From positions 1 to 36,911 of the IMG/VR virus record IMGVR_UViG_3300045988_065836: a stretch of DNA of 36,911 nucleotides; one strand, given 5' to 3'. Every line of letters begins with the position of its first letter. The first letter of the stretch is position 1. This document shows positions 6,503 to 35,022 of the stretch, piece by piece. This DNA is from a virus. Below the pieces are notes generated by a model that made no database searches, was not told the DNA's origin, and saw only the letters and a list, made by a program, of their open reading frames with translations. The translations under genes were made by a program, and so were the position numbers.

Positions 6503-6843
6503 GCGAACTCAACGAAAAAGTTCAGGCCAGCATCCAGCGCATGAAGGTCTTTGAACCACCGGAGGGCTATCTGCTGGCTTTCTCAGGCGGCAAGGACAGC
6601 GTTGTACTCAAGGCCCTGGCGGATATGTCGGGGGTGAAATACACGGCCCACTACAACGTGACCAGCGTAGACCCGCCTGAGCTGGTACGTTTCATCCGGG
6701 AGAAATACCCGGATGTGGCGTGGGAATATCCCAGGTACAACGACGGGAAACGGATTACAATGTGGAATCTGATTCCTCGGAAATATCTGCCGCCCACCAG
6801 AGTTGTACGCTACTGCTGCTCCAACCTGAAAGAATTTTTCTGA
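6499..6843 (+). CDS. PAPS-reductase-family PP-loop ATPase, N-terminal segment, ending at an in-frame TGA
   Basis: PP-loop motif AFSGGKDS, then RYCCSNLKEFF before the stop. The family normally continues with a Gly-rich linker and TGVRWAES. Confidence 0.85.
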   Translation: MSELNEKVQASIQRMKVFEPPEGYLLAFSGGKDSVVLKALADMSGVKYTAHYNVTSVDPPELVRFIREKYPDVAWEYPRYNDGKRITMWNLIPRKYLPPTRVVRYCCSNLKEFF

Positions 6844-6918
6844 GCCGGACGATATACGCTTACCGGTGTTCGCTGGGCGGAATCGAGCCGGAGAGCCGCC
6901 GCCCATGGGCTGCTGACC

Positions 6919-7395
6919 ATGCCGAATGCAAGGCCAAAAACCACTCCGGACGGGTTTGAACGTTCCAAACGTGGCGGTATCATCCTGAACAACGATAACG
7001 ACGATGCCCGCCGGGTGCTTGAAACCTGTTACGCAAAACAGAAAAAGATGGTCAACCCCATTGTTGACTGGGAAGACAGCGACATTTGGGAGTTCATCAA
7101 GGCTGAAAATGTGCCTTACTGCGGCCTTTACGACGAGGGTTTCAAGCGGCTTGGGTGCATCGGCTGTCCCATGGCTGGGAAACACCGGAAAATAGAGTTT
7201 GATCGTTGGCCGAGATACAAACAGCTGTACCTAAACGCATTCGCACGGATGCAGGAGGCCAGAGTTGCCGCTGGGAAAGCGCCGCTTTGTGCTGATTGGG
7301 TGCAAAATCCAACACCCCAGGATATTTTCGACTGGTGGATGGAGGAACCGTGGCTCATCGGGCAGATGTCGATGTTTGAGGACGGTGAAAAATGA
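6919..7395 (+). CDS. PAPS-reductase-family protein, C-terminal segment (same frame as 6499..6843; homology resumes at 6844)
   Basis: The frame is open from 6844 (AGRYTLTGVRWAESSRR...). It contains NPIVDWEDSDIWEFI, PYCGLYDEGFKRLGCIGCPMAG. The first ATG is at 6919. Confidence 0.85.
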   Translation: MPNARPKTTPDGFERSKRGGIILNNDNDDARRVLETCYAKQKKMVNPIVDWEDSDIWEFIKAENVPYCGLYDEGFKRLGCIGCPMAGKHRKIEFDRWPRYKQLYLNAFARMQEARVAAGKAPLCADWVQNPTPQDIFDWWMEEPWLIGQMSMFEDGEK

Positions 7396-8156
7396 AAATA
7401 GCCAGGGTATTCCCAACAAAAACCAGTATGTCCCCCACTGACCCGCTGGCTTTCTTTGGGCCACCGACCATTGAAGCTATGGCGGCGGAGCCGGATGAGG
7501 TGCATATCAGCGTTACTTTCTCCTGGGATTTGGAGAAAGCAGACGAGTTGTTTTACCAGTGGGAAATGCTGGGTGTCCCCGTGGAAGTGGGTGGGCCTGC
7601 GTTCGGAGACAGAATGGGCGACACGTTTACCCCTGGAATGTATGTACGGGAGGGCATGACGATCACAAGCCGGGGCTGCCCGAAGGACTGTTGGTTTTGC
7701 GATGTGGGAAAATGCGCCAACGGGAAGGTGATCGAGCTGCCGGTGCAGGATGGGTGGAATATCCTAGACGATAACATCTTGGCAACCAGCGATGACCATT
7801 TTCGTGAGGTCACGAAAATGCTGAAACGGCAAAAACAGAGGCCGGTATTTTCCGGCGGGCTGGAACCGGAGTACATGACCCCGTGGAAAGCAGAGCAGTT
7901 AATGTCCATCAATCCGCAAACGCTTTATACCGCCTATGACACCATGGACGACTACGACCATTTAAGGGCTATGTCGGACATGCTGCATAATGCGGGGCTT
8001 AGCTGGAAAAGCCACCAGGTAAAGTGCTATATGCTGTGCGGATACCCGGAAGATAGCATGGATGCAGCGGAGAAACGAGCCAAACAAATCATGGGGCTGG
8101 GATTTCTGCCCTTTGCCATACCGCGTTACCAAAGATTTTGTGGAAGCATTAACTAG
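7392..8156 (+). CDS. Radical SAM protein, translationally coupled to the PAPS-reductase-like gene
   Basis: CX3CX2C motif in ITSRGCPKDCWFCDV. ATGA overlap at 7392-7395. The C-terminus may be disrupted (see findings). Confidence 0.8.
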   Translation: MKIARVFPTKTSMSPTDPLAFFGPPTIEAMAAEPDEVHISVTFSWDLEKADELFYQWEMLGVPVEVGGPAFGDRMGDTFTPGMYVREGMTITSRGCPKDCWFCDVGKCANGKVIELPVQDGWNILDDNILATSDDHFREVTKMLKRQKQRPVFSGGLEPEYMTPWKAEQLMSINPQTLYTAYDTMDDYDHLRAMSDMLHNAGLSWKSHQVKCYMLCGYPEDSMDAAEKRAKQIMGLGFLPFAIPRYQRFCGSIN

Positions 8157-8203
8157 TTACCAATACTTCGAGGACGATTTTTTGGATTGGGCGAAAAGGT
8201 TCT

Positions 8204-8359
8204 GTGACGACACCGGAAAAAACCATTCTCAAGGCAAAAATCGTGGATACCATGGAAGCGGATGTAAATGGATACACTGGGGAGTTAAAAAAGGAACTCG
8301 TTCTTGATGTAGAAGACTTTGAGAAAGTGATATTCGAGGAGGTTTCTGACAATGGATGA
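8204..8359 (+). CDS. Possible small ORF (or shifted 3' end of the radical SAM gene)
   Basis: Open frame encoding VTTPEKTILKAKIVDTMEADVNGYTGELKKELVLDVEDFEKVIFEEVSDNG that overlaps the next start. The start codon is uncertain (GTG 8204 or ATG 8252) and the RBS is weak. Confidence 0.25.
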   Translation: MTTPEKTILKAKIVDTMEADVNGYTGELKKELVLDVEDFEKVIFEEVSDNG

Positions 8360-8537
8360 AATCAAATTAAAGCCCTGCCCGTTTTGCGGGGGAACAGCCG
8401 GAGCTATAGGGGACGGTGGATTTGACGAAGATAATTGCTTTTGGGTCAGATGTTGGGAATGCGGCGCAGAAACTTCCACTTATGAATCTGTGGAAGAAGC
8501 TAAAGAGGCATGGAACCGGAGGGCTGACAATGGCTAG
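8352..8537 (+). CDS. Lar-family restriction alleviation protein
   Basis: IKLKPCPFCGG near the N-terminus, C..CGAE, and EEAKEAWNRR near the C-terminus; about 60 aa. GAGGAGG RBS. Confidence 0.72.
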   Translation: MDEIKLKPCPFCGGTAGAIGDGGFDEDNCFWVRCWECGAETSTYESVEEAKEAWNRRADNG

Positions 8538-9108
8538 AGCGGTACTTATCAGCATTCGCCCGAAGTGGGTGGAGAAGATTCTGAGCGGTGAAAAGACGCT
8601 GGAATTGAGAAAAACAGAGCCGAAGCTGGAAACGCCGTTTAAGGTTTACATTTATTGCACAAATGACAAAAAAGACTCTGATAGATTGTGGGTGCTGAGA
8701 GAACAAATTAGGAAAGAGTACAATGGACTTGCCGCAGTGTGCGCACATTTAAGAGCGCAACCAGATTTACATAGTGTTGGTAACGGGCACGTTGTCGGAG
8801 AGTTTGTGTGTGACAAAATCGGAGTCATTTGGGGTGGTGGGTATCTGAAAATGCCGGAAAGTGCTTTTGCCGGAAGCTGCTTAAATATGTACCAGATAGA
8901 CACATATCTGGACGGCAAAGACGGGCATTTCTGGCACATTTCCAAGCTGGAAATCTACGACACACCGAAGAAGCTGAGCAAGTTTTCACGCCCGTTTGAA
9001 AACTGCATAGGCAAAGTGTGTGATGAATATGGGTGTGCCTATTGCGAAAATGGTGGTCATATCAAACGCCCGCCCCAGAGTTGGTGCTATGTGGAGGATC
9101 TGGCATGA
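8530..9108 (+). CDS. ASCH-domain (PUA-like) protein with a Cys-rich C-terminus
   Basis: AVLISIRPKWVEKILSGEKTLELRKTEP is the typical ASCH N-terminus. ATG 8530 overlaps the upstream TAG. Confidence 0.72.
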   Translation: MARAVLISIRPKWVEKILSGEKTLELRKTEPKLETPFKVYIYCTNDKKDSDRLWVLREQIRKEYNGLAAVCAHLRAQPDLHSVGNGHVVGEFVCDKIGVIWGGGYLKMPESAFAGSCLNMYQIDTYLDGKDGHFWHISKLEIYDTPKKLSKFSRPFENCIGKVCDEYGCAYCENGGHIKRPPQSWCYVEDLA

Positions 9109-9422
9109 AAGCATGGAAAGTTCGAGATCCAAATGAGTGGACAGCAACCATCGTCTTTGCGGAAACAGCCGGAAAAGCCAGATCCTTGGCAATGCACACA
9201 GACTGTTGCGAGGACATGGATTTTTGCGCCATTGAGGTAAGACGGGCACCGGCTGCTGACATGTGTCATAGAGCAGGAAAATGGGAAATGGACTGGTATG
9301 ATTCCGACGACAGGCTTGTAATGGTGCGGGACTTGGGGTTTACTTGCGAATACAAAGAACCGGAAGAATGCGCATGGTGCCCAGCTAAGGAATACTGCGA
9401 TTTGTATAACGAGGAGGGCTGA
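9105..9422 (+). CDS. Hypothetical Cys-rich protein
   Basis: ATGA overlap at 9105. The 105-aa product begins MKAWKVRDPNEW. Confidence 0.55.
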   Translation: MKAWKVRDPNEWTATIVFAETAGKARSLAMHTDCCEDMDFCAIEVRRAPAADMCHRAGKWEMDWYDSDDRLVMVRDLGFTCEYKEPEECAWCPAKEYCDLYNEEG

Positions 9423-9424
9423 GC

Positions 9425-9748
9425 ATGAGTGATTACATAAGCCGGGAGGCGGCACTGACGGAATTGCAAAACCCTGAGCTGTTTAACGTCTCACCAAGAT
9501 TTCTACAGATTCTCCGCGATCTTCCCGCCGCCGACGTGGAGCCGGTGCGGCATGGGAAATGGAATATCCGGGTTTCGGATGAACGTACCTTATGCCTGGA
9601 ATGCTCCGTGTGTGACCGCAAAGTTGATAACTTCAACCTGCACCGTCTGCTGATATTCGGAGAATACGGGGAGGCTTGCCGCAGATACCCTTATTGCCAT
9701 TGCGGCGCAAAAATGTGTTTGGAGGACAAAGAAAATGAGGCTGATTGA
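9425..9748 (+). CDS. Hypothetical Zn-ribbon protein
   Basis: ORF-track ORF containing DLPAADVEPVRHGKW followed by CLECSVC...CHCG. Confidence 0.55.
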   Translation: MSDYISREAALTELQNPELFNVSPRFLQILRDLPAADVEPVRHGKWNIRVSDERTLCLECSVCDRKVDNFNLHRLLIFGEYGEACRRYPYCHCGAKMCLEDKENEAD

Positions 9749-10064
9749 TGCGGACGAACTTAGAGCGTGGCTTGTAAAAGCAGGTTGGTTTCTGAAGCTC
9801 CAAGACGACAAGAGAACCGCTTCCCATGCCATTGGGAAGATCATCGACCATGTAGACAAGATCCCCACCGTGGATGCCGTGCCGGTGGTGCGGTGCCGGG
9901 AGTGCGAACACGCCGAACGGTATGAGCGGATAGATGGAACCGCAGGCTATTACTGCGGACACCCGCAAAACACCTTCGTCTATGGTGATCGCTGGGATCG
10001 TGTATTCAAACCGGTAAAAAAGCCGGACGATTTTTGCAGCTTCGGCGAGCCGAAGGAGGGGTAA
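9735..10064 (+). CDS. Hypothetical Zn-ribbon protein (shares an N-terminal module with 9425..9748)
   Basis: LIDADELRAWL...KIPTVDAVPVVRCRECEH. Overlaps the upstream gene by 14 nt. Confidence 0.55.
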   Translation: MRLIDADELRAWLVKAGWFLKLQDDKRTASHAIGKIIDHVDKIPTVDAVPVVRCRECEHAERYERIDGTAGYYCGHPQNTFVYGDRWDRVFKPVKKPDDFCSFGEPKEG

Positions 10065-10067
10065 CGA

Positions 10068-10289
10068 ATGGAAGCTTTTGTTGAAGGTGTTGGAATGTTC
10101 TTTGTAGCGATCGGCGGCATTGCAGCGGTTCTTGCGGCGTTATGCTTTTTCTGGTGGTTGGCTGATATCGCGTGGATTGCAGCAAGCAACCGCTTCCGGG
10201 ACATCTGCAAGGCGGAAAGCCTTATCCATGAATACCGCCGGAACAGAGAAAAGTTCCTGGAATGGCTGGCAAAGGGGGACGAAAAATGA
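10068..10289 (+). CDS. Small membrane protein
   Basis: GAAGGAGGGG RBS. Hydrophobic N-terminus VGMFFVAIGGIAAVLAALCFFWWLADIAWIAA. Confidence 0.6.
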   Translation: MEAFVEGVGMFFVAIGGIAAVLAALCFFWWLADIAWIAASNRFRDICKAESLIHEYRRNREKFLEWLAKGDEK

Positions 10290-10465
10290 GCAGCGAACTC
10301 ACCTACATGGACTGCTGGCAATTTATCGCCCCACTTATCCCGGTAAGCACCGACTACACGATGGATATTTACATCATGGTGTTTAACGCACTGAAAGAAG
10401 CGGAGAAAAAGCGAATTGCCGGGGGCGGCAAAACAGGAGGCCAAAATGATGCCGATCAACATTAG
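10286..10465 (+). CDS. Hypothetical protein
   Basis: ATGA overlap at 10286. 59 aa. Confidence 0.5.
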   Translation: MSSELTYMDCWQFIAPLIPVSTDYTMDIYIMVFNALKEAEKKRIAGGGKTGGQNDADQH

Positions 10466-10622
10466 CTTCCTCGGCTGCTGTAAAGACTGCAAACGCCGCT
10501 CCCCTGCCTGCTCCGACCGCTGCGCCGACTACCAGATCGCCAAGGCCTTCCACCGGGCCGAGGTGCAGTGGACGCGGGAGCAGGTGCGCAGACGGCAGCG
10601 GGGCGTGAATGGGAGAAAGTGA
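10446..10622 (+). CDS. Hypothetical Cys-rich protein
   Basis: AGGAGG lies 4 nt upstream of ATG 10446. Contains LGCCKDCKRRSPACSDRCADY. Confidence 0.5.
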   Translation: MMPINISFLGCCKDCKRRSPACSDRCADYQIAKAFHRAEVQWTREQVRRRQRGVNGRK

Positions 10623-10686
10623 GGTGATATTTCTTTCTCATGCCAAGGAAAAAGTTACCGCAAACGGAAAGTGAAAGGAGCGCATT

Positions 10687-10968
10687 ATGGCGGAAATTAC
10701 ATTCGACCAAGATCAAATCATCAAAAACGTAAATGAGCGTATTACGCAAGACCTGGCGGCAGCTATTAAGCAGGTAGCCAAGGACGGAGTATGGGAAGAT
10801 GCCGAGGAAGACGATGGGGTTGACCCTGAAAAGATTATCCGCAGGACTATGGCGACCTATATGGGTGGCAGCGTTCCCGGATGGTTTTCGGAGGCATTAC
10901 AGGCAACATCCTATGGTATTGGCCGAGGACAAGATGGAGGGATACGGATGCATTGCGGCACTGTATGA
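10687..10968 (+). CDS. Hypothetical protein
   Basis: GAAAGGAG RBS. The 93-aa product is acidic. Confidence 0.55.
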   Translation: MAEITFDQDQIIKNVNERITQDLAAAIKQVAKDGVWEDAEEDDGVDPEKIIRRTMATYMGGSVPGWFSEALQATSYGIGRGQDGGIRMHCGTV

Positions 10969-11080
10969 AGCAGCAGGCAAGGCGAATACGGTAAAGCGGA
11001 TGGCTGCGCTGACAAAGCTGCTTGCAATATACAAACCGGTTGGTTGGCTGGCTGGAATGCCCAATACGGCAATCGTCTGA
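10934..11080 (+). CDS. Possible small ORF overlapping the previous gene in another frame
   Basis: MEGYGCIAALYEAAGKANTVKRMAALTKLLAIYKPVGWLAGMPNTAIV with GAGGA just upstream. It could instead be a frameshifted continuation of 10687..10968. Confidence 0.3.
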   Translation: MEGYGCIAALYEAAGKANTVKRMAALTKLLAIYKPVGWLAGMPNTAIV

Positions 11081-11105
11081 TGGCTATTTGAAAGGAGGCG
11101 GGGCT

Positions 11106-11453
11106 ATGTCAAGGCCAAAATACTGGTGGTATCACTACGTAAAAGAATCCATCATGCGAAATATGAGCGGCACAGCCCCGCTGACCTACCAGAATTACCT
11201 TGTTAAAATAGCGGTAGACAAAGTTATTGAAGAAACAAAAAGCCAATACAGAGGCGCTGAACGCCTGAGAATGATCGACTTAATTTATAGGAAACGGCAG
11301 TACAATGTCCCCGGTGCTGCCGTGCAGCTGTACATCTCGGAGAGCACGGCGTGCAAGTGGAACAAAGAGTTTGTATACGCAGTCGCCGATAAAATGGGAT
11401 ATTTTGAAAAATGTGTATCACAGCCTGGGGAAGATGATACTATTCCGATATAA
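11106..11453 (+). CDS. RinA/ArpU-like late-gene transcriptional activator (sigma region-4-like HTH)
   Basis: AGGAGG RBS. RLRMIDLIYRKRQYNVPGAAVQLYISESTACKWNKEFVYAVADKMGY. It occupies the last early position upstream of the terminase genes. Confidence 0.55.
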   Translation: MSRPKYWWYHYVKESIMRNMSGTAPLTYQNYLVKIAVDKVIEETKSQYRGAERLRMIDLIYRKRQYNVPGAAVQLYISESTACKWNKEFVYAVADKMGYFEKCVSQPGEDDTIPI

Positions 11454-11480
11454 AAAGCCCCGCCAGATTGGCAGGGCTTG
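11452..11480. terminator. Hairpin between convergent genes
   Basis: AGCCCCGCC (11456-11464) / GGCAGGGCT (11470-11478) with one mismatch. An A-run lies 5' and TT lies 3'. Confidence 0.5.
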
Positions 11481-11490
11481 GGAAATAGAC

Positions 11491-11682
11491 TTATTTTTCT
11501 TTGATATACTTTCCAGATCGTACGCGCTTATCGGTTGGAAGTTCTGCATTCGCCGGGATTATCCATTGGTTGCCCACTTTCTTCCCAGGCAACGCCCCAG
11601 CTATAAGCATTCTTCTTATCCTGGAAACGTCCCGGCCAACCTTTTCAGCGTATTCGGTAACGGACAAATAATCATTCTCCAT
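11491..11682 (-). CDS. Excisionase-type (HTH_17-like) DNA-binding protein
   Basis: YLSVTEYAEKVGRDVSRIRRMLIAGALPGKKVGNQWIIP is the typical Xis/MerR-like HTH. Antisense to the flanking operons. Confidence 0.7.
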   Translation of the reverse strand: MENDYLSVTEYAEKVGRDVSRIRRMLIAGALPGKKVGNQWIIPANAELPTDKRVRSGKYIKEK

Positions 11683-11776
11683 GATGCTTTTCCTTCCATA
11701 GGTGATAAGCGGCTACGGCGATTTTGATAACAGAGCAAATCACGATAATAAGTCCTATAGTTCCAACGATTCCCAT
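11672..11776 (-). CDS. 34-aa hydrophobic peptide upstream of, and overlapping, the HTH gene
   Basis: Minus-strand ATG at 11776 is preceded by AGGAGGT (complement of 11781-11787). Product is MGIVGTIGLIIVICSVIKIAVAAYHLWKEKHHGE. It overlaps the HTH start by 11 nt. Confidence 0.45.
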   Translation of the reverse strand: MGIVGTIGLIIVICSVIKIAVAAYHLWKEKHHGE

Positions 11777-11800
11777 ATTTACCTCCTGTATAAAATTCGT

Positions 11801-11829
11801 TTGACAGACGGGTGAAAATTGGCTATACT
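11801..11829 (+). promoter_or_regulatory. Near-consensus promoter facing the packaging/structural genes (candidate late promoter)
   Basis: TTGACA at 11801-11806, a 17-nt spacer, and TATACT at 11824-11829. Confidence 0.55.
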
Positions 11830-11835
11830 GGGCAT

Positions 11836-11865
11836 ATCCAACCGGGGCTTTCACCCCGGTTGGAT
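11836..11865 (+). promoter_or_regulatory. Perfect 12-bp stem-loop at the predicted 5' end of the late transcript
   Basis: ATCCAACCGGGG (11836-11847) / CCCCGGTTGGAT (11854-11865) with a 6-nt loop, beginning 7 nt after the -10 box. Confidence 0.6.
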
Positions 11866-11915
11866 GGCTGAATTATTCGATGCTTTTTTCGATTAGCATC
11901 AGAATCAGCCCCACG

Positions 11916-11977
11916 AAAAAGCCCACTAAGCCATTTACGATTGTTTGCGACCAGTCGATGTGCTTAGTGGGCTTTTT
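11916..11977. repeat. 16-bp inverted repeat with a 30-nt spacer in the terS leader
   Basis: AAAAAGCCCACTAAGC (11916-11931) and GCTTAGTGGGCTTTTT (11962-11977). Confidence 0.7.
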
Positions 11978-12079
11978 CTCGTATTTGCCCGTTGGAATCA
12001 CCCCCCTTGTTTTGATAGTCATATTATAGCACGATATCGTGCGGAAGTCAATAGTTTTAAGAAAAAAGTTGGTGAGATT

Positions 12080-12562
12080 GTGGCAAAATTAACGGCAAAA
12101 CAGCAAAGATTTGTCGATGAATATTTGATTGATTTGAATGCTACCCAGGCCGCAATCAGAGCCGGGTATTCGGCTCAAACCGCATACAGAACAGGCGCAG
12201 ACAACCTCAGAAAACCTCAAATCAAATCGTACATGGAATCCCGAATGGCCGAAAAGGAAGCGGCCTTGATTGCTGACCAGGATGAGGTTTTGAAATATCT
12301 AACGTCCGTAATGCGTGGGCAGTCTCGGTCATCCGTTGTGGTTGTGGAGAGCGCCGGTGATTTTATAAGCAAGGCCCGGGAAATGGAGAAATCGCCGGAC
12401 GAAAAAGAGCGCCTGAAAGCTGCGGAGCTTCTGGGCAAACGGTATGGGCTGTACAGCGGCGGCAATAAGCAGAAAGCAAACGGGCAGCAGAAGAATAATT
12501 TGCTGGATGCAATATCCAGCATGGAGGAGATAAACACGGATGATTTACCAGAGGTTGAGTAA
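12080..12562 (+). CDS. terS: Terminase small subunit (Terminase_2-like)
   Basis: GTG 12080 gives (M)AKLTAKQQRFVDEYLIDLNATQAAIRAGYSAQTAYRTGADNLRKPQI, the canonical TerS N-terminus. Overlaps TerL. Confidence 0.8.
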   Translation: MAKLTAKQQRFVDEYLIDLNATQAAIRAGYSAQTAYRTGADNLRKPQIKSYMESRMAEKEAALIADQDEVLKYLTSVMRGQSRSSVVVVESAGDFISKAREMEKSPDEKERLKAAELLGKRYGLYSGGNKQKANGQQKNNLLDAISSMEEINTDDLPEVE

Positions 12563-13787
12563 GCGGCAAAAGCTGGCTATGCTATGGTGGAATCAGCCGA
12601 AATTCAGGAACCGGGATGCAATCATCTGTGACGGGTCCATTCGTTCCGGAAAAACCGTCAGCATGGCCGTGGGATTTATCCTGTGGAGTATGTCAAATTT
12701 TGACGGCCAAATTTTCGGAATCTGCGGGAGAACGATACAGAGTTTGCGGCGAAATGTCATCTTGCATCTGCACGACTGGGTGCCGGAGGATTTGGAAATC
12801 ACGGAACGCCGTGGGGAAAATATGCTGGTGGTTTCCGATGGCTGCGGCCACGAAAATATCTATTACTTGTTCGGGGGCAAAGATGAAAGCTCGTATGCCT
12901 TGGTACAGGGTATCACGCTGGCCGGTGCACTGCTGGACGAAGTGGTCCTTATGCCGCAATCCTTCGTGGAACAGGTCATTGCACGTTGTTCTGTGGCTGG
13001 GTCAAAGCTTTGGTTTAACTGCAACCCCGGCGGGCCGGAACATTGGTTTAACAAAAACTGGATTCTTAAAAGCAAGGAAATGAACGCCCTGCATATCCAC
13101 TTTACCATGCAGGATAATTACAGTCTGGCACCGGAAATCCGGGAACGATACGAACGCATGTACACCGGTGTGTTCTACCAGCGTTACGTCCTGGGCCTCT
13201 GGGTGTTGGCTGAGGGGCTTGTGTACAGTTTTGGAGAGGAAAACATAACCGACGAACGGCCAAAGGGTGCGGAGTACTACATAAGCATCGACTACGGCAC
13301 GTTGAATCCGTTTTCGGCTGGCCTGTGGAGCGTCACCGGCGACAAGGCCGTGAGAATCAAAGAGTACTATTACAGCGGGCGGGAGAACAGCCGGAACATG
13401 ACGGATGCGGAATACTGCGACAAGGTGGCGGAGCTGGCCGGGGGATATGAGATTAAACGGGTTATTGTTGATCCGTCCGGAGCATCCTTTATCGAGGCAC
13501 TGCGGCAGCGAAAATTCAAGGTGCTGGGAGCCAAAAACGACGTTCTGGACGGCATAAGGCGAACGTCTGTTTATCTAAGAGATGGGAACATTAAAATCCA
13601 TCGGTCATGCGCGGACAGCATCCGGGAATTTGGATTGTACCGATGGGACGAAAAAAAGAACGATGATAGCGTCATAAAAGAAAATGACCACGCAATGGAC
13701 GATATCCGTTACTTTTGCAATACAATCATGCGATACAAGGTAAAGAAAAAGCAGGATATTCCGCCGGAAGTGGCGAGACTTTTATAA
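12540..13787 (+). CDS. terL: Terminase large subunit (PBSX/XtmB-like)
   Basis: Walker A GSIRSGKT, Walker B LLDE, and nuclease motifs ISIDYG, VIVDPSGAS, NDHAMDDIRY. Confidence 0.93.
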   Translation: MIYQRLSKRQKLAMLWWNQPKFRNRDAIICDGSIRSGKTVSMAVGFILWSMSNFDGQIFGICGRTIQSLRRNVILHLHDWVPEDLEITERRGENMLVVSDGCGHENIYYLFGGKDESSYALVQGITLAGALLDEVVLMPQSFVEQVIARCSVAGSKLWFNCNPGGPEHWFNKNWILKSKEMNALHIHFTMQDNYSLAPEIRERYERMYTGVFYQRYVLGLWVLAEGLVYSFGEENITDERPKGAEYYISIDYGTLNPFSAGLWSVTGDKAVRIKEYYYSGRENSRNMTDAEYCDKVAELAGGYEIKRVIVDPSGASFIEALRQRKFKVLGAKNDVLDGIRRTSVYLRDGNIKIHRSCADSIREFGLYRWDEKKNDDSVIKENDHAMDDIRYFCNTIMRYKVKKKQDIPPEVARLL

Positions 13788-13802
13788 CATCGGAGGAAAT
13801 GA

Positions 13803-15218
13803 ATGAAGACATACCAGGATTTGCAGGAAGCTGTCAGCGGCGGCAGGATCGGGGAATTTCTGCGGGATGCCGTGAATGTGCATCGGGGCAGCAAGGCATA
13901 CAAAAATGCCGTGGTTGGCATGGACTATTACAACAAGCACAACAGCACCATCGAGCAGATGCAAAAAACCATGTACACGCTGACGGGCAACACCGTGCCG
14001 GATATCTGGTCTCCGGATTACCGGCTGAAAACGCTGATGTTCCGGCGGCTGGTGACGCAGGAGGTTGGCTATGTGCTGGGCAACGGTGTTTCCATGGACG
14101 GAAAAGAGCGGCTGGGTGCTGGGATTGACAATAAGCTGCAAACCGCCGCAAAGCTGGCGCTGGCACAGGGGAAAGCGTTTGGCTTCTGGAATCTCGATCA
14201 TTTGGAAGTATTTTCGTTTGCCGACACCGCCGGAAGCCCTGGGTTTGTGCCGTTGCTGGATGAAAGCACCGGCGAACTGATGGCCGGTATTCGGTATTGG
14301 TTCCGGGAGACCGGGCGCAAAAGCGTATTCCGGGCTACGCTGTATGAGCTGGACGGTGTAAGCGAATGGAGCGCAACCGGCAGCGACTCCCCTGCCCTGC
14401 TGGCTGCAAAACGGGGCTACATTCGGCGGGAGGTGCGGGACGACTTCGGCGTAGTTGATCAGTGCGACGAGAATTACACGCGGCTGCCCATCGCTATTCT
14501 GTACGGCAACGATAGCCACGAATCTGAAATTGTGGGGCTGCGAGAATCCATTGACTGTTACGATTTCATCAAGTCTGGATTCGCCAACCAGATCGACGAG
14601 GCAGGTGTCTATTGGCTGCTGCACAACACCGGGGCAATGGACGACCCTGATCTTGCAAAGTTTATCCAGAGGATGCGCACCGTCCGGGCGGCTGTTGTGG
14701 ATGATGCAGACGGAGCGGCAGCTGATGCAAACACCGTGGACGTGCCTGTGGAAGCCAGAAAGGCCATGCTGGATATTTTGCGGCGGGATCTGTACGAGGA
14801 TGCTCAAATGCTGGATGTGGCAGCATTGGCCGGAGCGGAAAAAACGGCAACGGAGATTTCCGCCGCCTATCAGCCGCAGGACAACAAATGCGCAGACTTT
14901 GAATATTTCCTGATTGACTTTATTCAGCAGATTTGCGCAGTGGCCGGAATCCCAAATCCAGAGCCGCAATTTACGTGGAACAAAGTTATCAACCAGGCAG
15001 AGGAGACAAACATGGTGCTTGCTGCCGCCGAATACCTGGATGACGAAACCATTTTGAAGCATCTGCCGTGGATTCTGCCGGAGGAAGTGCCGGACATCCT
15101 GAAAAGGCGGGACGAGGCCGATTTGCAGCGGATGGGCGCTATGGAAAAGCAATTCCAGGCGATGCAGCAGCAAAAGCAGCAGGAGCCGGACAACCAGAAT
15201 CAGCAGCCGGAGGAATAA
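13803..15218 (+). CDS. Portal protein (SPP1 Gp6-like)
   Basis: 471 aa, directly after TerL, with a typical portal N-terminal region and a Q-rich acidic tail. Confidence 0.9.
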   Translation: MKTYQDLQEAVSGGRIGEFLRDAVNVHRGSKAYKNAVVGMDYYNKHNSTIEQMQKTMYTLTGNTVPDIWSPDYRLKTLMFRRLVTQEVGYVLGNGVSMDGKERLGAGIDNKLQTAAKLALAQGKAFGFWNLDHLEVFSFADTAGSPGFVPLLDESTGELMAGIRYWFRETGRKSVFRATLYELDGVSEWSATGSDSPALLAAKRGYIRREVRDDFGVVDQCDENYTRLPIAILYGNDSHESEIVGLRESIDCYDFIKSGFANQIDEAGVYWLLHNTGAMDDPDLAKFIQRMRTVRAAVVDDADGAAADANTVDVPVEARKAMLDILRRDLYEDAQMLDVAALAGAEKTATEISAAYQPQDNKCADFEYFLIDFIQQICAVAGIPNPEPQFTWNKVINQAEETNMVLAAAEYLDDETILKHLPWILPEEVPDILKRRDEADLQRMGAMEKQFQAMQQQKQQEPDNQNQQPEE

Positions 15219-15221
15219 GCC

Positions 15222-26663: not shown

Positions 26664-26678
26664 TGCGGGAGGCGCGAT

Positions 26679-27020
26679 ATGCAAATTTATATTGATGCTG
26701 ATTTTAAGTGCCATACTGCCCTGAAGGAGGGACGGACAGCGCTTGAAACCGATTTTTTTGAGGACATGTGCGCCGCCTATATCGAGGGCTACCGCTTTGT
26801 CCCGGCCGGGAAGACCTGGACGGCAGCGGACGGCACGGTGTATTCCGGCGAAATGATTACTCCCTGGAAGCCCTGGGCGGAGCTGGACGCCGCCCAACGT
26901 GCCTATGAGCGGGAGCGCGCCGCCGCGCTGGAGGCCCAGAACGCCGAGCTATTGGATGCCATGGCCAGTATGGTGGAGGACGTTTACAACCAAGATGTTG
27001 CAGTAATTGAGGGGGAGTGA
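26679..27020 (+). CDS. Hypothetical tail-module protein
   Basis: GGGAGG RBS. 113 aa. Confidence 0.5.
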   Translation: MQIYIDADFKCHTALKEGRTALETDFFEDMCAAYIEGYRFVPAGKTWTAADGTVYSGEMITPWKPWAELDAAQRAYERERAAALEAQNAELLDAMASMVEDVYNQDVAVIEGE

Positions 27021-27279: not shown

Positions 27280-27690
27280 ATGGTGCCGAAGCAAGTTGTG
27301 CCGGACCGGCGCGGACTGGTAGAAATCGGAAAAATCAAGGAAAACCTGGTAACGGAGGTTGCCTTTGACTGCGCTGATCTGGGCGACGGAAGCGGGGCCT
27401 ATGCCGTTGTCTTTCAGCGGCCCAAGGACGCGGCCCCCTACCCCGTGGCGTTCCGGGCCGAGTGGCCGAGCATCGTCTGGGTGGTCCAGGCCGCCGACAC
27501 TGCCAAGCCCGGGACCGGCAAGGTGGAAATCCGGTGGTATGGTGACGGGCACCAGGTGGGCAAATCCAAGACCTACATGGTACGCATTACCGACGGGCTC
27601 CCCGACCCCACCGAGGCCCCGGAAGCCTGGGAGGGCTTTATGGGGGAGGTTGCCCGGAATGCCCAGGCGGCGCAAACCGCAGCGGGATAG
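27280..27690 (+). CDS. Tail fibre, N-terminal segment, ending at an in-frame TAG
   Basis: AAAGGAGG RBS. The Ig-like anchor region runs into an Ala/Gln-rich coil (ARNAQAAQTAAG) and stops at TAG 27688. Confidence 0.75.
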   Translation: MVPKQVVPDRRGLVEIGKIKENLVTEVAFDCADLGDGSGAYAVVFQRPKDAAPYPVAFRAEWPSIVWVVQAADTAKPGTGKVEIRWYGDGHQVGKSKTYMVRITDGLPDPTEAPEAWEGFMGEVARNAQAAQTAAG

Positions 27691-28722
27691 GCCAAGACCA
27701 ACGCAGACGGCGCGGCGGCATCCGCCGGGATTGCCCAGGATGCAGCCGCGGAGGCCGGAAAGTTGGCCGGGGCTGCCGGAGGGGCTGCCAACGCTGCGGC
27801 GAGTGCTGCATCCGCTGCATCCAGCGCCCAGGCCGGGGCAGAGACCGCCGCACAGAACGCCCGGGCGGCTGCGGAAGCCGCCGAGACGGCCAGGAGCGGC
27901 GCAGAGGCGGCGAAACTTGCCGCTGCGGAATCGGCCACGGGTGCGGCAGGAAGCGCGGAAGCAGCCGCACAGGCTGCCCAGAAGGGCGAAAACCTGTACA
28001 ATCAAGTAAAAGCCGATTTGGCCGCCGGGAAGCTGAAAGGTGAAAAGGGCGATAAGGGAGACCCCGGCAAGGACGCGCCGCAGATTGACGATAGCGTGGT
28101 ATCCGCCGAAAACCCGTGGAGCAGCCGCCATATTGTCGAGACGCTGTGCCCGCCCATTGCAGAAACCGGCAACCCCGTGACGTGCTACCCGGTAGCTGGG
28201 TATCCGCTGGGGGTGGTGGCATCGTTTGCGCCCACCCAGGCGGGAGAGGGCGAGCCGTACCCGGCGGGAGGAGGGCCGCAGATGCTGGATATATCCAGGT
28301 GCACGGCCACTGTGGGCAAGCCCTACGGCCTTACAATCACCATAGACGGAGACGTTATCAAGTGCAGCGGCGTGCCGTCTGCGGAGGTGGCAGAGAAAAA
28401 GGTCTACTCTTTCGCCGTGGCTTCGTCCGCCCAGGAAGAGCTGCGGGGAAAGGGGTACAAGGTCACGGCGTGGCCCATCAATGGCAAAGTGTCCAACGCC
28501 TGGGGCCTGCGGACGGCTGACGAGTCATCGTTGGCGATTGCCGCCGAGCTGTCACCTGGGGTAGACACGGATATACAGCTGCGGCTGATGGTATCCAAGG
28601 ATACGCCCACATCCTACGCTCCGTACGAAAACATCCGGCCGATCAGCGGGCGGGATAGCGTCAGCGTGGAGCGGTGCGGGGGGGCAGCTGCTAAGCTATT
28701 CGCAACCAATCGAAACGGATAG
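27691..28722 (+). CDS. Tail fibre, central segment (same frame as 27280..27690; possible restart at TTG 27763)
   Basis: The frame is open immediately after the TAG (AKTNADGAAASAGIAQDAAAEAGK...). Contains an Ala-rich coil and a GEKGDKGDPGKD collagen-like stretch. GGAGG lies 8 nt before TTG 27763. Confidence 0.7.
   Translation, partial: AKTNADGAAASAGIAQDAAAEAGKLAGAAGGAANAAASAASAASSAQAGAETAAQNARAAAEAAETARSGAEAAKLAAAESATGAAGSAEAAAQAAQKGENLYNQVKADLAAGKLKGEKGDKGDPGKDAPQIDDSVVSAENPWSSRHIVETLCPPIAETGNPVTCYPVAGYPLGVVASFAPTQAGEGEPYPAGGGPQMLDISRCTATVGKPYGLTITIDGDVIKCSGVPSAEVAEKKVYSFAVASSAQEELRGKGYKVTAWPINGKVSNAWGLRTADESSLAIAAELSPGVDTDIQLRLMVSKDTPTSYAPYENIRPISGRDSVSVERCGGAAAKLFATNRNG
28678..28684. repeat. 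Poly-G tract (G7) at the frame junction inside the tail fibre locus
   Basis: tgcGGGGGGGcagc, read directly. Loss of one G fuses 27691..28684 to 28685..29836. Confidence 0.95.
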
Positions 28723-29836
28723 CGACATTGTTGTAGGCCTTGAGTCTCCTGCGAGGACGCTGCTCTTGGCGAATTCCGTGCGAGGCCAGAAGCTCGAGGT
28801 ATCTTTCGAGCTGGAAACAGCAAACGTCGAATGGATGGATGCCGATGAAGTTTGGCGGCGCAGAATTGGATTTGAAGCGACTATCACAAAAGCATCGGAT
28901 GGACGGGTGAATTATAACTTTGCTTGCTGGATTGCATCGAACAGCGACGAGTTCAAGGCAACTGGAAAGTTCACGGTGAAAAAAGTGATTACCCTGTTTG
29001 ATGATAGGTATACAGCGTCAGGTGGATTTAAGTTCTATGTGCAAAACATGAAATCTGGGCGAGTAAAAGCAACCAATTTGTCCATCAAATTGATGCAAAA
29101 TACCGCCTACGCCCCCTACCGTGGCGATACGCTGGATTTGCAGCTGCCGTCTACCATCTACGGTGGCAGCTTGGATGCGGTGACGGGAGAGGGGGAACAT
29201 AAATGGGGACTGGTAACCTTTGACGGGAGCGAGGCGTGGACTATAGGCGGACTTGCTGCCGACAAAAGAGACTGGTATTACGTATCCCCGAAAATTGTCG
29301 ATGCAATCAACGAAATGCCGAAATCTGGGAACGAAATATGCAGCCATTACCCACATTATGATGTGTCGAACAACAATACAGGCAAGGGCTGCGCATTGGT
29401 GTGGGGGGCCTTCCGGGTGAGATGGGGTGATATAATCCCCGAGAACACAGATGCCTGGAAATCCTACCTCGCCGCCCAGGCCGCAGCCGGAACCCCGGTG
29501 CAAATTGCGTACAAGCTGGCAACCCCCACTCCATTCACGGCTACGGGGAACGGGCCCATCATGCCGCTGGAAGGCGAGACCAACACCATCATGACGGATG
29601 CTGATACCGTGACTGTCACCGGGCGGGCAGACCCGGCCCACGCCATTGCGGCGCTGCAAGCACAGTTGGCCGTTGCCACGCAGCAGCTTGCCGAGACGCA
29701 GGCGGCGATGGTGGACACCACGGCTATGGCGGTGGACTATATCTATCAACAGGATTTGGAGGATATTGGACTGGAGGAGGTTGACGACAGTGACAATCAA
29801 ACAGATACAGAGCCTGTTGACGTACCTGGGGTATAA
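28685..29836 (+). CDS. Tail fibre, C-terminal (receptor-binding?) segment in the +1 frame (possible restart at TTG 28766)
   Basis: The +1 frame is open from the G7 tract (QLLSYSQPIETDSDIVVGLESPARTLLLANSVRGQKLEVSFELE...) to TAA 29834-29836. Confidence 0.7.
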   Translation, partial: QLLSYSQPIETDSDIVVGLESPARTLLLANSVRGQKLEVSFELETANVEWMDADEVWRRRIGFEATITKASDGRVNYNFACWIASNSDEFKATGKFTVKKVITLFDDRYTASGGFKFYVQNMKSGRVKATNLSIKLMQNTAYAPYRGDTLDLQLPSTIYGGSLDAVTGEGEHKWGLVTFDGSEAWTIGGLAADKRDWYYVSPKIVDAINEMPKSGNEICSHYPHYDVSNNNTGKGCALVWGAFRVRWGDIIPENTDAWKSYLAAQAAAGTPVQIAYKLATPTPFTATGNGPIMPLEGETNTIMTDADTVTVTGRADPAHAIAALQAQLAVATQQLAETQAAMVDTTAMAVDYIYQQDLEDIGLEEVDDSDNQTDTEPVDVPGV

Positions 29837-31960: not shown

Positions 31961-32952
31961 TGGCAAACCCCTATATGCAGCCCAATTACCAAGGCGGCTA
32001 TTTCCAGCCGAACTATTTCAGCCCGCAAATGCAGCCGATGCAGCAGACGCAAATGCCGATGCAGGGACAGCAGGCCCCGCAGGACGACCGGAATGTGCTG
32101 CAATCGGTTATCCGTGGTCACAACGCAAAGCCCATGGTATTCCGCAGCTTCAACCCGCCTATGAGCATGAGCAATTGGGCAAACCAGTTTATCACAGAGC
32201 CAGATACCCAGGCTCTTACATTCCACACTGACTATACTATGATTCCGCCGGACTGGCTGGGAGATGCCTTTATTCTGGAAGCGGAGCGCCTAAAGGCCAC
32301 AAACCCCAAAGCATTCGAGCATGAGTATTTGGGCATTGCTACCGGCACAGGTGCGGAAGTATTCCCGGCACTGGAAGTGCGGGAGATCACCCCCGAAGAA
32401 ATCCAGAACATGGAATATTTCTTTTACGGCGTGGATTTCGGTTTTGCCGCTGATCCGGCGTGCTTCCTCCGGTGCAGCTATGACCGGAAGCATGAAACCA
32501 TTTACCTGCTGAACGAAATCTACAAGCGTGGCCTCTCGAACAGGCAACTTGCGGCAGAAATCAAGCCCCTTATTGATGGGGACAGCCCCGGCAGCGTCTA
32601 CAACGAGTTCTACCATGAATTTCTCCAAGGCAGCCCGCCACCCGTCTACTGCGACGCAGCAGAACCGAAAAGCATTGCCGACCTCCGGGACAGCGGAATC
32701 AAAAAAGCCCTGGCCTGCCACAAGGAGCCGGGATGTGTAGAATACCGGGTGAAGTGGTTGCAGCACCGGCGCATTGTCGTAGACCCAGCCAGAACGCCCA
32801 ACGCTGCAAGGGAACTTGCAAACTACGAGTACGAGAAGGATAAGGACGGCAACATTCTAAGCCGTCTACCAGACAAAGACAACCACAGTATTGACAGCCT
32901 GGCCTATGCCCTGGATAGGGAAATCTACCACCGCAAGGGCCAGAGCGCATAA
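31957..32952 (+). CDS. Second, N-terminally truncated terminase-large-subunit homologue (nuclease domain only) with a Q/P/Y-rich N-terminus
   Basis: FRSFNPP...HTDY...NPKAFEHEYLG, GVDFGFAADP, VYCDAAEPKSIADLR, DKDNHSIDSLAYAL parallel the C-terminal half of a PBSX TerL. There is no Walker A or B. The first 45 aa are MMANPYMQPNYQGGYFQPNYFSPQMQPMQQTQMPMQGQQAPQDD. Confidence 0.8.
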   Translation: MMANPYMQPNYQGGYFQPNYFSPQMQPMQQTQMPMQGQQAPQDDRNVLQSVIRGHNAKPMVFRSFNPPMSMSNWANQFITEPDTQALTFHTDYTMIPPDWLGDAFILEAERLKATNPKAFEHEYLGIATGTGAEVFPALEVREITPEEIQNMEYFFYGVDFGFAADPACFLRCSYDRKHETIYLLNEIYKRGLSNRQLAAEIKPLIDGDSPGSVYNEFYHEFLQGSPPPVYCDAAEPKSIADLRDSGIKKALACHKEPGCVEYRVKWLQHRRIVVDPARTPNAARELANYEYEKDKDGNILSRLPDKDNHSIDSLAYALDREIYHRKGQSA

Positions 32953-32968
32953 GGAGGAACTTATACAT

Positions 32969-33280
32969 ATGGGCTATTTACGAATCAAGTGCTACTATTG
33001 TGGCGGAACATGGGAAGTTTACCACCGGGATCTTCATAGCCGGTACAAGAAAGCCAGAGAATGCCCGCATTGCTTCCAAAAAATAGACGAGCAGACATGG
33101 GACAATCAGATTTTCCCGGCATACAACGCACTGGATGATGCGAATAGAGAGCTATTCAAAGACCATCTCGGCCACCATGTACCGCTCTTTGAAGTCAGCT
33201 ATGAATCTAATACGATTTTCAAAAATGCCAAGAACTGGCCCAGCTACTCAGACGATGATGATTCATCGGATATTGAGTAA
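32969..33280 (+). CDS. Zn-ribbon protein with an acidic tail
   Basis: AAGGAGGA RBS. CYYCGG...CPHC. The C-terminus is SYSDDDDSSDIE. Confidence 0.6.
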   Translation: MGYLRIKCYYCGGTWEVYHRDLHSRYKKARECPHCFQKIDEQTWDNQIFPAYNALDDANRELFKDHLGHHVPLFEVSYESNTIFKNAKNWPSYSDDDDSSDIE

Positions 33281-33300
33281 AGTGGTCGAAATCGACCACT
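33281..33300 (+). terminator. Perfect 9-bp palindrome hairpin right after the cassette stop
   Basis: AGTGGTCGA aa TCGACCACT followed by TT. The T tail is weak. Confidence 0.35.
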
Positions 33301-33512
33301 TTAATGCCCGCCACAGCAGCGCCCTGGGCCTCACAGTCTGGGGCGCTTTCTACGCGAAAAAGCGGGCCACCGAAGTGACCCGCCAGCGCTCCGAGAATTA
33401 GGTGGGGCGACACTCCCACATCTCCTTACGAGGGTTGGTCGATGTGTTTTATATTGTTCAGTTTCTTGTAATAATGTTTTGACTTTTTAATGATTCTCAG
33501 GAAAAACAAGCT

Positions 33513-33543
33513 AAAAGGCGCTCTTTTTTTGAGTGCCTTTTTT
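33513..33543. terminator. Bidirectional terminator downstream of the minus-strand island gene
   Basis: AAAA-GGCGCTC-TTTTTTT-GAGTGCC-TTTTTT: a 7-bp stem including one G-T pair. Confidence 0.7.
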
Positions 33544-33602
33544 CAGCGTTTACTACCGTGTTCACACACCTGTTAGGCAAATGTTAGGCAAGCGAATAAC
33601 CT

Positions 33603-34484
33603 CTACCAATTCTTAATCCGCACATACTTAGGGCGTGCCTCTGGACTGTTAAACAGAAAATTTTGATACTCTAGTAACAGCTCAACGGATGCACCCTTTT
33701 TTATTTTTTCCTTGTACTCCGAACACTTTTCACAAAACGAATTAAATGTATCTGTGTATTTAGGAGTAGCCCTGTATTCATCAGCTCTCCACCTAAGTCT
33801 TTCGTACTCTGCCAGCCTCTTTTTCTCCAATTTGTCCTTTATTGCTTTCACAGCCTCCGCACAGGAATAATCTCCGTATTCAGGGTAAGGCGAATGGCGA
33901 CTACAATACTTTACCTTTAAGTTCGATGTCAAAAAATATCTTCCACAATGAGCACATTTGGAGATGGAATATCTATTGTAAACACAACAGTGTACCAATG
34001 AAAAAACAAAATCTACCATTGTGCGGCATGAATAATACCGGAACACATTGGGGTCAAACTCAGACTCCTCATTAGCCTGTTTATCAAGTATGCGCCATTT
34101 GTCTAACTCTTTTGAGAATCTTTCAAAAGCCAATAGTGTTAGGATGGAGTTAATATTTCTATACCTGTCTGATGATTCACCTTTTTTGTATTCGATGCTG
34201 ATTCCATAAAAAGATCGGAAATCATCAAAATTCTCCAGATTAGCCTTTTTCAGGTAATCAGTTTTCTCAAAATAATCAGATAGCAGCTGCCATGCATCCC
34301 TTGGGTCTGCATAATTAAAGAACTCGTTCGACTGCACACCATGTTCAAATCGTTCGGTTAGCTTCTCGTATATTTCACATAAAAATGTTTCAGCGGAATA
34401 TTGGTAAGCACTTTTCGTTGAAAACAAATAGACCGTTCCACTCCGTATCTCTAAACTGACAACCGACTCAGCTTCTTTTGCCAT
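33603..34484 (-). CDS. Cys-rich 293-aa protein in an AT-rich island (reminiscent of DUF6076-type proteins of Clostridial mobile elements)
   Basis: Minus-strand ATG at 34484 follows AGGAGAAGG. Contains KCAHCGRYF...KYCSRHSPYPEYGDYSCAEAV. Its composition is far more AT-rich than the surrounding genome. Confidence 0.6.
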   Translation of the reverse strand: MAKEAESVVSLEIRSGTVYLFSTKSAYQYSAETFLCEIYEKLTERFEHGVQSNEFFNYADPRDAWQLLSDYFEKTDYLKKANLENFDDFRSFYGISIEYKKGESSDRYRNINSILTLLAFERFSKELDKWRILDKQANEESEFDPNVFRYYSCRTMVDFVFSLVHCCVYNRYSISKCAHCGRYFLTSNLKVKYCSRHSPYPEYGDYSCAEAVKAIKDKLEKKRLAEYERLRWRADEYRATPKYTDTFNSFCEKCSEYKEKIKKGASVELLLEYQNFLFNSPEARPKYVRIKNW

Positions 34485-34609
34485 GGTTCCTTCTCCTGAA
34501 ATGTTTCGTATTTTCAATTCTAATTATATCATCGAAAAATACCAAAATCAACAACAAAAAGTGAATTAAAATGAAGTCACCAAACGAAAGGAAAGGAGCC
34601 TTTACGAAA

Positions 34610-34804
34610 ATGGAAAATACAATCCCCGTTTTTTTATCTATCCGTGAAACGGCGAAATCTGGAATTCTTACAGAGTATCGGTTACGCTGCATGGAAAAGT
34701 CTGGAGAACTGCCCTGTATCTACGCTGGCAAAAAATGCCTCATCAATGTTGACTTGCTCATTGCACAGCTCAATGATTTACAGAAAGTAGGTACTCAAAA
34801 ATGA
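34610..34804 (+). CDS. Excisionase-family HTH protein
   Basis: AAAGGAG RBS. FLSIRETAKSGILTEYRLRCMEKSGELPCIYAGKKCLINVDLL. Confidence 0.7.
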   Translation: MENTIPVFLSIRETAKSGILTEYRLRCMEKSGELPCIYAGKKCLINVDLLIAQLNDLQKVGTQK

Positions 34805-35022
34805 CCCAATGTGAACGCATTCTCCGCCACCTCCAGGACGGTAACACACTGACCCAGGCCTAGGCCTTTTTGGAGTATGGAGTCGGCCGACTGTCTAGCC
34901 GAATATGTGATCTCCGGCGGGCGGGCTACCCTATCAAGGGCGAGTTCGTCACCCAGAAAAACAGATACGGGGAGCCTTGTACATTTGTTCGGTATTCGCT
35001 GGATGAAACCAAGGGGGCTTGA
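34801..35022 (+). pseudogene. HTH_39-like winged-helix gene interrupted by an in-frame TAG at 34861
   Basis: MTQCERILRHLQDGNTLTQA*AFLEYGVGRLSSRICDLRRAGYPIKGEFVTQKNRYGEPCTFVRYSL. ATGA-coupled at both ends. The stop lies inside the conserved motif. Confidence 0.6.

Follow-up and report, generated by a model that had tools for sequence, protein, structure and literature searches.

A circular gut siphovirus contig with private nonsense codons, frameshifts and a satellite-like segment is probably a decaying, defective variant

What do a few in-frame stop codons mean in a phage genome in which most genes are clean? The question is raised by the IMG/VR virus record IMGVR_UViG_3300045988_065836, analysed here over its whole length of 36,911 nt (the window), a 36.9-kb phage-type genome with nearly all genes on the plus strand. 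An initial annotation, made from the sequence alone, described four in-frame stops plus frame breaks at G tracts in an otherwise intact genome, and offered four explanations: a defective or hypermutated variant, suppression or context-dependent read-through, consensus error, or deliberate attenuation. Our analysis suggests that the window is probably a genuine, though defective, derivative of a temperate gut siphovirus, decaying after the replacement of its lysogeny block by satellite DNA.

The window's exact proteins place its source in one human-gut metagenome (sample SAMEA3664526, run ERR1136729), and two further assemblies of this sample were compared with it: the ENA assembly ERZ28661339 (ZEEV15-1_SAMEA3664526 scaffold_417, 37,036 nt) and the Logan contigs of ERR1136729. 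Contigs from public metagenomes (L084, L085 with L183, and L093) are 99.2–99.8% identical to the window over 10–18 kb, and a megablast search of GenBank phages with 12 kb of the window gave no match. Among GTDB species representatives the best portal identity was only 78%, to a contig of an uncultured Lachnospiraceae metagenome-assembled genome; further matches came from Oscillospiraceae and other Clostridia, and no host was assigned from this search. In the integrated relative L182 (10331–10585), the prophage end adjoins a host tRNA-His/Arg/Gly cluster followed by RNase Y, which marks the intact relatives as temperate phages with integration sites close to tRNA genes. The window contig closes on itself through a 119-nt overlap, with no host flanks seen:

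1–119, identical to 36793–36911 (no strand): direct terminal repeat; the assembler's circular overlap, at whose end the ENA scaffold diverges exactly

Comparison with relatives and homologues identified the following lesions, together with the gene that carries three of them.

6841–6843, plus strand: TGA nonsense codon (from GGA, Gly), codon 115 of the 298-codon PAPS-reductase-like gene 6499–7395; from relatives and Pfam
10914–10915, plus strand: extra G, a window-private insertion giving a +1 frameshift in a 130-aa gene (10687–10914 in frame 1, 10916–11080 in frame 2)
16409–16411, plus strand: TGA nonsense codon (from TGC, Cys), codon 4 of the 61-codon Cys-rich gene 16400–16585 in the head module; from relatives
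27280–29836, plus strand: tail-fibre gene, 851 aa if repaired; from PHROG tail-fibre matches
27688–27690, plus strand: TAG nonsense codon (from GAG, Glu), codon 137 of the fibre gene, in the Ala-rich shaft; from relatives
28223, plus strand: polymorphic fibre-gene position; window and relatives have C (TCG, Ser), the ENA assembly has A (TAG)
28678–28684, plus strand: G7 tract (G6 in relatives), whose one inserted G (+1) moves the fibre reading from frame 1 into frame 2
34861–34863, plus strand: TAG nonsense codon (from GAG, Glu), codon 21 of the 73-codon HTH_39-type gene 34801–35022 in the satellite segment; from homologues

The Pfam PAPS_reduct domain occupies residues 25–225 of the joined 298-aa product and runs across the TGA at 6841. 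Three full-length proteins that are 90–95% identical (P0004, P0009 and P0003) read ...LKEFFGAGRY... at this stop, and the codon is GGA in the DNA of L094–L097 and GGG in more distant relatives. The 61-codon gene in the head module is preceded by a strong Shine-Dalgarno sequence; site 16409 is TGC in all eight relatives with 93–99% local identity, and a 61-aa gene is called there. A prfB-like +1 frameshift at this TAT TGA C was considered and rejected, as the frame after the stop continues the 61-aa homologue and the relatives have TGC. At 34861, Glu is aligned with the TAG in 32 homologous copies, on which PF14090 (HTH_39) is recorded; eight of them (L203–L210), with 90% identical DNA and the same first 27 residues, have GAG. 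The extra G at 10915, which the initial annotation had not listed, makes GG where 10 relatives have a single G; the frame switch is seen by tblastn, and relatives have one 130-aa gene called at this locus (L084 2721–3113).

Damage is heaviest in the tail fibre, which survives in the window as separate pieces of 136 aa, an open stretch and a 356-aa open reading frame (ORF). Once one G is removed and the TAG replaced, its C-terminal 585 aa are 100% identical to the intact 848-aa protein P0064 and 94% identical to P0065, and an intact 851-aa fibre is called in L181 and L182. The codon at 27688 is GAG in six relatives, including L084 and L085 (99.2% identical locally, with only that base differing within 123 nt), and P0015 equals the N-terminus of the window's fibre except for a Glu at the TAG. 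A K-degenerate exact scan at the same site found three further metagenome contigs, all GAG. Over 19.6 kb the ENA scaffold departs from the window at position 28223 alone, and the Logan contigs break there, ending at 28215 and restarting at 28224; together these indicate that the site is polymorphic in the sample, the A allele being a fifth nonsense allele that was absent from the initial list. The G tract at 28678–28684 splits one fibre gene between frames 1 and 2, with one G fewer in six relatives; L178, which encodes the intact P0064, has G6 in the same context.

Hypermutable poly-G tracts occur in Campylobacter phage receptor-binding genes, and the G7 tract, a homopolymer inside a fibre gene and immediately upstream of the distal domains, could by analogy be a phase-variable or programmed-frameshift switch of the receptor-binding protein. 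The likeness is that of a G homopolymer whose length sets the reading frame of a fibre gene. Unlike the switching tracts, however, the window's G7 is fixed and no evidence of switching was found: tract length did not vary either among the six relatives, all G6 and in frame, or among the three assemblies of the sample, all G7, and the Logan contig runs through the tract without a break. The tract is also short, and the same gene carries a nonsense codon as well. We consider a switch very unlikely indeed, and the tract is better read as an ordinary frameshift.

Each of the four stops can be derived by one G:C>T:A transversion from a sense codon kept in all relatives examined (Gly, Cys, Glu and Glu, encoded by GGA, TGC, GAG and GAG at 6841, 16409, 27688 and 34861), and the same stops were found in none of them, including relatives that are about 99% identical at sites 16409 and 27688. 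Exact-pattern scans of IMG/VR returned no match to the stop alleles at 6841 and 34861, not even from the window, which shows that the collection scanned lacks this contig. The lesions are seen only in assemblies of the one sample, where every one of them recurs in the ENA scaffold and in four Logan contigs (L081, spanning 3803–15687; L265, 15664–20067; L083, 22889–28215; L185, 28224–35706). L081 is 100% identical to the window across 6841 and carries the extra G at 10915, and L265 carries the TGA at 16409; the TAG at 27688 is present in ENA and L083, and both the G7 tract and the TAG at 34861 in ENA and L185. The Logan contigs are 100% identical to the window save for three bases at 32954–58. 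Thus all four stops that had been noted from the sequence alone, and the frame break in the fibre, are borne out as disruptions of genes that relatives keep open.

The lesions coincide with a large rearrangement. In relatives, a 126-aa gene follows the lysis cassette, and then come about ten accessory genes, an integrase, an HTH_3 repressor and the early region; the gene tables of L181–L183 and L187 place the integrase and repressor at the position where the window has the segment listed below. By this gene order, the accessory, integrase and repressor block of the relatives has been replaced in the window by 4.8 kb of a satellite-like element.

32096–36911 (no strand): 4.8-kb satellite-like segment, matched at 83–98% by satellites L195–L210
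31957–32952, plus strand: in-frame fusion ORF of the first 45 codons of a phage 131-aa gene and residues 171–462 of a satellite large terminase, with junction J1 at about 32076–32095
107–349, minus strand: 3'-truncated 80-aa remnant of a 115-aa gene, cut by junction J2 at about 110–130; from protein comparison

Homology to phages ends at 32088–32095 and resumes at 110. Between these points lie genes for the TerL C-terminus, a 103-aa protein, a DUF6076 protein (minus strand), a 64-aa protein, HTH_39, DUF6291, DnaB and a 44-aa protein. At J1 the phage relatives match up to 32088–32095 and the satellites from 32076, with about 5 nt of exact microhomology (on the scale of CCGGA); L185 crosses this junction, and since a k=31 graph is not led astray by so short a homology, J1 exists as a real molecule. 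The protein cluster to which the fusion ORF belongs otherwise consists of 462-aa terminases, and gene callers label the fusion a PBSX-family terminase. At J2 the phage relatives match from 110 and the satellites up to about 130, with about 20 nt of similar sequence. Beyond 119/120 the ENA scaffold (L082 19633–19843) continues into sequence that the window lacks, apparently the satellite's next gene, and the Logan contig L081 starts at 108. An unrearranged satellite path at J2 is therefore present in the sample, and an unrearranged satellite seems to co-exist there. Three genes are cut by the junctions (TerL, the 131-aa gene and the 115-aa gene). With the lysogeny module replaced, the frameshift at 10915 and the polymorphic stop at 28223, the description of the genome as otherwise intact does not hold.

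The matching elements (L195 7574–15350, L196–L202 and L203–L210) form a family of integrative elements of about 8 kb in contigs of gut Clostridia. Their genes come in the order 71-aa gene, HTH_39, DUF6291, DnaB (or a 210-aa protein with an IstB-like loader), 44-aa gene, 117-aa or 86-aa protein, large terminase (462 aa), 103-aa gene and toxin-like genes, and end, at the edge of the element, with an integrase beside tRNA-Thr or a DUF6076 protein. No capsid, portal or tail genes appear in their gene tables. They have the look of phage satellites equipped with a large terminase of their own, and resemble satellites of the phage-inducible chromosomal island (PICI) type, integrative elements that depend on exploiting helper phages, in size (about 8 kb), in the integrase beside a tRNA gene, the HTH regulator, the replication organiser with a DnaB helicase, the small and large terminase genes and the lack of capsid or tail genes. 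Unlike such satellites, the window has a full though damaged morphogenesis set and a satellite fragment only. At 33421–33434, sequence from the satellite right end (after the 103-aa gene) is joined to sequence from the left end (the 3' flank of DUF6076). The donor was probably an excised circular form, and the segment may contain its attP. The three bases at which Logan differs from the window (A, A and G against G, G and A, at 32954–32958) fall within the Shine-Dalgarno region that precedes the 103-aa gene, and mark another spot, the second, at which the sample is polymorphic. The chimera holds two replication modules, the phage one with DUF6291 and a G39P-like loader and the satellite one with DUF6291 and DnaB; the two DUF6291 genes, of replisome-organiser type, lie at 4798–5523 (phage) and 35025–35510 (satellite).

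How the lineage has evolved since its split from intact relatives can be read from the differences private to the window. These were polarised over 8.9–32.1 kb against at least three relatives (21.9 kb covered), with a mosaic block at 26.09–26.80 kb left out. Of the 22 substitutions private to the window, 4 are synonymous, 12 nonsynonymous, 2 nonsense and 4 intergenic, and its two private indels are both frameshifts; the pooled relatives have 325 synonymous, 111 nonsynonymous and 1 nonsense. Nonsynonymous and nonsense changes taken together stand to synonymous ones at 14:4 in the window and 112:325 in the relatives (Fisher p=9e-6). Neutral change, calculated for the window's own codons, should be 0.30 synonymous, 0.64 nonsynonymous and 0.06 nonsense, which the proportions in the window match, and without the G:C>T:A changes the ratio of nonsynonymous to synonymous changes (N:S) is still 10:4. 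The private changes are also biased from GC to AT (15:3, against 314:218 in the relatives), which is what raw mutation looks like before selection. On this comparative evidence they appear to have accumulated neutrally, without purifying selection. The proposal of a defective or hypermutated variant is thus upheld in its first part; with a private divergence of only about 0.1%, there is no need to invoke hypermutation. Deliberate attenuation of fibre and modification genes finds no support, the private changes of the lineage being neutral as a whole.

Several points weigh against a real, decaying variant. The contrast in N:S is weaker when only short-branch relatives are considered (11 nonsynonymous to 22 synonymous), and terminal branches often show a somewhat raised N:S. 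A circular contig at appreciable coverage is unlike what is expected of a silent chromosomal remnant. All the evidence comes from one biological sample, and from assemblies rather than reads; as the assemblies share the same reads, assembler artefacts are excluded and base-call artefacts are not. In this connection, a GGC lies at most 8 nt upstream of the change, read on the C strand, in six of the eight G:C>T:A events, against a background of 12.8% and 14 of 99 such substitutions in the relatives (post-hoc p ~1e-4). GGC is a published trigger of sequence-specific errors on Illumina instruments (PMC3141275), and the cohort was sequenced on NextSeq (two-colour) and HiSeq machines (10.1101/150540).

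The C>A changes, and perhaps the added Gs, could therefore be sequence-specific Illumina artefacts that entered the consensus, for example by dephasing after GGC motifs. T adjoins the mutated C at six of the eight sites, and in two-colour chemistry a mixture of T (green) and C (red) signals reads as A. Moreover, both indels add G, and 28223 behaves as a roughly 50:50 bubble. When the published GGC error model was checked against the actual substitutions, however, it did not predict them: the errors it describes are one-directional, consecutive and copy the preceding base, and isolated C>A changes are not among them (PMC3141275). Reads from the unaffected strand would also make bubbles, yet three assemblers agree at all fixed sites and the Logan contigs are unbroken there; from an unbroken Logan contig of 15.6 kb (k=31 graph, minimum count 2) we estimate a coverage in the teens. 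The remaining 17 private changes, mostly transitions, keep their ratio of 10 nonsynonymous to 4 synonymous, and base-call errors cannot produce recombination junctions. Consensus error in general is made unlikely by the agreement of three assemblies at the fixed sites, and what survives of that option, a systematic base-calling artefact, we also regard as unlikely.

The spectrum of the stops allows a second alternative, a recent mutagenic burst in an otherwise active phage, for example in a MutY/MutT-deficient or oxidatively stressed host, sampled before selection had purged the damage. All five nonsense changes are G:C>T:A where 36% would be expected (p=0.006), four of the eight G:C>T:A sites hit the 5' G of a G run, and the private divergence is small. 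Oxidative damage at the 5' G of G runs, or a MutY-type defect of the host, may have contributed to the stops. Against a burst as the whole explanation, G:C>T:A changes make up just 5 of the 22 private substitutions in the unbiased region, compared with 16% in the relatives; a phage with a twice-broken fibre cannot spread, and fixing several independent knock-outs needs selection-free propagation anyway. A burst of this kind is, in our judgement, quite unlikely. The G>T (C>A) changes at 6841, 17237, 19180, 27688, 28223 and 34861 have a G N1-2 GCC context in common. A sequence-specific G>T process acting in this context, if real, would be a novelty beside the improbable hybrid considered below, possibly linked to loss of the DndC-like PAPS-reductase gene. 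The close relative L087 (Logan, ERR14026772) has a private nonsense change among only five private substitutions, and defective variants may be common in this phage group.

Could the stops be translated instead? In that event the interrupted genes would be functional through a host amber or opal suppressor tRNA, read-through in a stop-GCC context, or selenocysteine at the Cys-derived TGA. GCC follows three of the four stops, the TGA at 16409 stands in place of a Cys, and it has been proposed that prokaryotes often read through in-frame stops (PMC7918605). The shared GCC is accounted for by inheritance, as an Ala codon followed the ancestral GAG or GGA (Glu-Ala, Gly-Ala). There is no consistent decoding: the stops align with Gly, Cys, Glu and Glu, whereas recoding would lead one to expect Gln for TAG and Trp for TGA. 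ARAGORN found no tRNA genes in the window, and a search of 21 related loci found no phage- or satellite-encoded tRNA, only ordinary host tRNAs flanking integrated elements. Selenocysteine at 16409 was rejected: no hairpin resembling a selenocysteine insertion sequence (SECIS) was found downstream of the TGA, where 60 nt fold no better than shuffles (z=0.5), and the eight relatives have TGC. Nor can suppression rescue the two frameshifts of the same lineage, in which N:S is neutral. Global recoding had already been judged a poor fit and this is confirmed, since TGA terminates 33 genes and TAG five, and only two TGA and two TAG codons lie in frame in about 60 genes. The window shares with recoded gut phages (TAG>Gln, code 15; TGA>Trp, code 4; bioRxiv 10.1101/2021.08.26.457843; PMC9523058) the presence of in-frame TAG and TGA codons, including one in a late structural gene. 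It differs from them in having just two of each stop, in ending genes with the same codons, in the aligned residues, in the missing suppressor tRNA and in the absence of the stops from close relatives, and it differs likewise from the conserved in-frame stops with low dN/dS of PMC7918605. With stops that replace three different amino acids, are absent from relatives and are accompanied by no encoded tRNA, function through suppression or TAG-GCC read-through is highly improbable.

The course of events that we favour is then as follows. Two illegitimate recombination events at the level of microhomology exchanged the accessory, integrase and repressor block for 4.8 kb of satellite-like DNA. Since its split from relatives that are 99.2–99.8% identical, the lineage has gathered point mutations without purifying selection: four fixed nonsense codons, one polymorphic nonsense allele, two +1 G frameshifts and a neutral-looking set of missense changes. 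The stops would terminate translation in the ordinary way, and both stops and frameshifts would be ordinary knock-outs. With the fibre broken two or three times, infectious particles are not expected to be made by this phage by itself; with integrase and repressor gone, integration by the phage route is not expected either. It may persist passively, inherited vertically as an episome or cryptic prophage, or helped in trans, with its virion and modification genes free of selection.

In this respect the window resembles defective (cryptic or 'grounded') prophages, which show independent inactivating mutations in essential structural genes, modules lost by illegitimate recombination, a lineage-specific dN/dS of about 1 and a GC>AT-biased private spectrum. 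It is unlike them in having been assembled as a circular 36.8-kb molecule at appreciable coverage and not as a chromosomal island with host flanks, in being very young (about 0.1% from intact relatives), and in having gained a foreign replication module and not only lost DNA. Another possibility is that the window is a viable, helper-dependent hybrid whose own lysogeny module was swapped for a satellite regulatory and replication module, maintained as an episome or packaged with structural proteins provided in trans. Such a hybrid, if real, would explain the neutral drift of the fibre, head-module and modification genes, and would capture a phage in transition to a satellite or phage-plasmid; we hold it to be distinctly improbable. 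The decaying defective phage that we favour is an instance of a known phenomenon, to which the window adds a mapped phage–satellite recombination and an unexplained G>T context bias.

Two other suspected frame breaks, and some neighbouring variation, proved to be of a different kind.

7392–8156, plus strand: radical-SAM-like gene, 254 aa, the last 11 codons unlike the 281-aa homologue; from tblastn, with weak Pfam and PHROG radical SAM matches
18855–18860, plus strand: G6 tract at the natural 3' end of the major capsid gene 17968–18864 (298 aa, PHROG major head protein); no lesion

The G6 tract had been flagged as a possible frame break and is a real gene end: the same 298-aa gene is called on all ten related contigs shown, and look-up recorded the exact protein on 21 contigs (22 contigs read). 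The suspected shift at the 3' end of the radical SAM gene likewise fell away. In tblastn against the window, the 281-aa homologue gave a single high-scoring segment pair covering residues 1–243, with homology ending at about 8120, and no other frame of the window continued it past that point; a frameshift was therefore rejected, and a mosaic replacement of the 3' end at about 8120 is preferred. Of the pattern first described, then, the four stops and the G7 tract stand, and the G6 tract, the radical SAM shift and the intactness of the remainder do not. The radical-SAM-like gene directly follows the PAPS-reductase-like gene, of a DndC-like fold family (6499–8156), and the pair, kept in relatives, may serve to modify DNA. 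Neither member is whole in the window, where the PAPS-reductase-like gene is knocked out and the radical-SAM-like gene has had its 3' end exchanged. Just upstream, the gene at 6116–6502 encodes 128 aa where others have 162–166 aa; a private deletion was rejected here, as homology with L001 reaches 6499 and with L002 6478, in line with a natural variant. Finally, dozens of clustered differences from otherwise 99% identical relatives lie at 26095–26764 (about 650 nt, from the end of gene 25950–26663 into 26679–27020), a block that is a recombination mosaic in the baseplate or distal-tail region.

The window shows that even a viral contig assembled as 'complete circular' may represent a dead or helper-dependent variant, and a handful of in-frame stops is no ground for inferring recoding unless relatives share them. 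Polarising private changes against near-identical relatives and comparing their N:S offers a practical test for claims of recoding. The window also puts on record a natural phage–satellite recombinant with mapped junctions and, were the hybrid proved to propagate, it would bear on the origin of satellites and phage-plasmids from phages.

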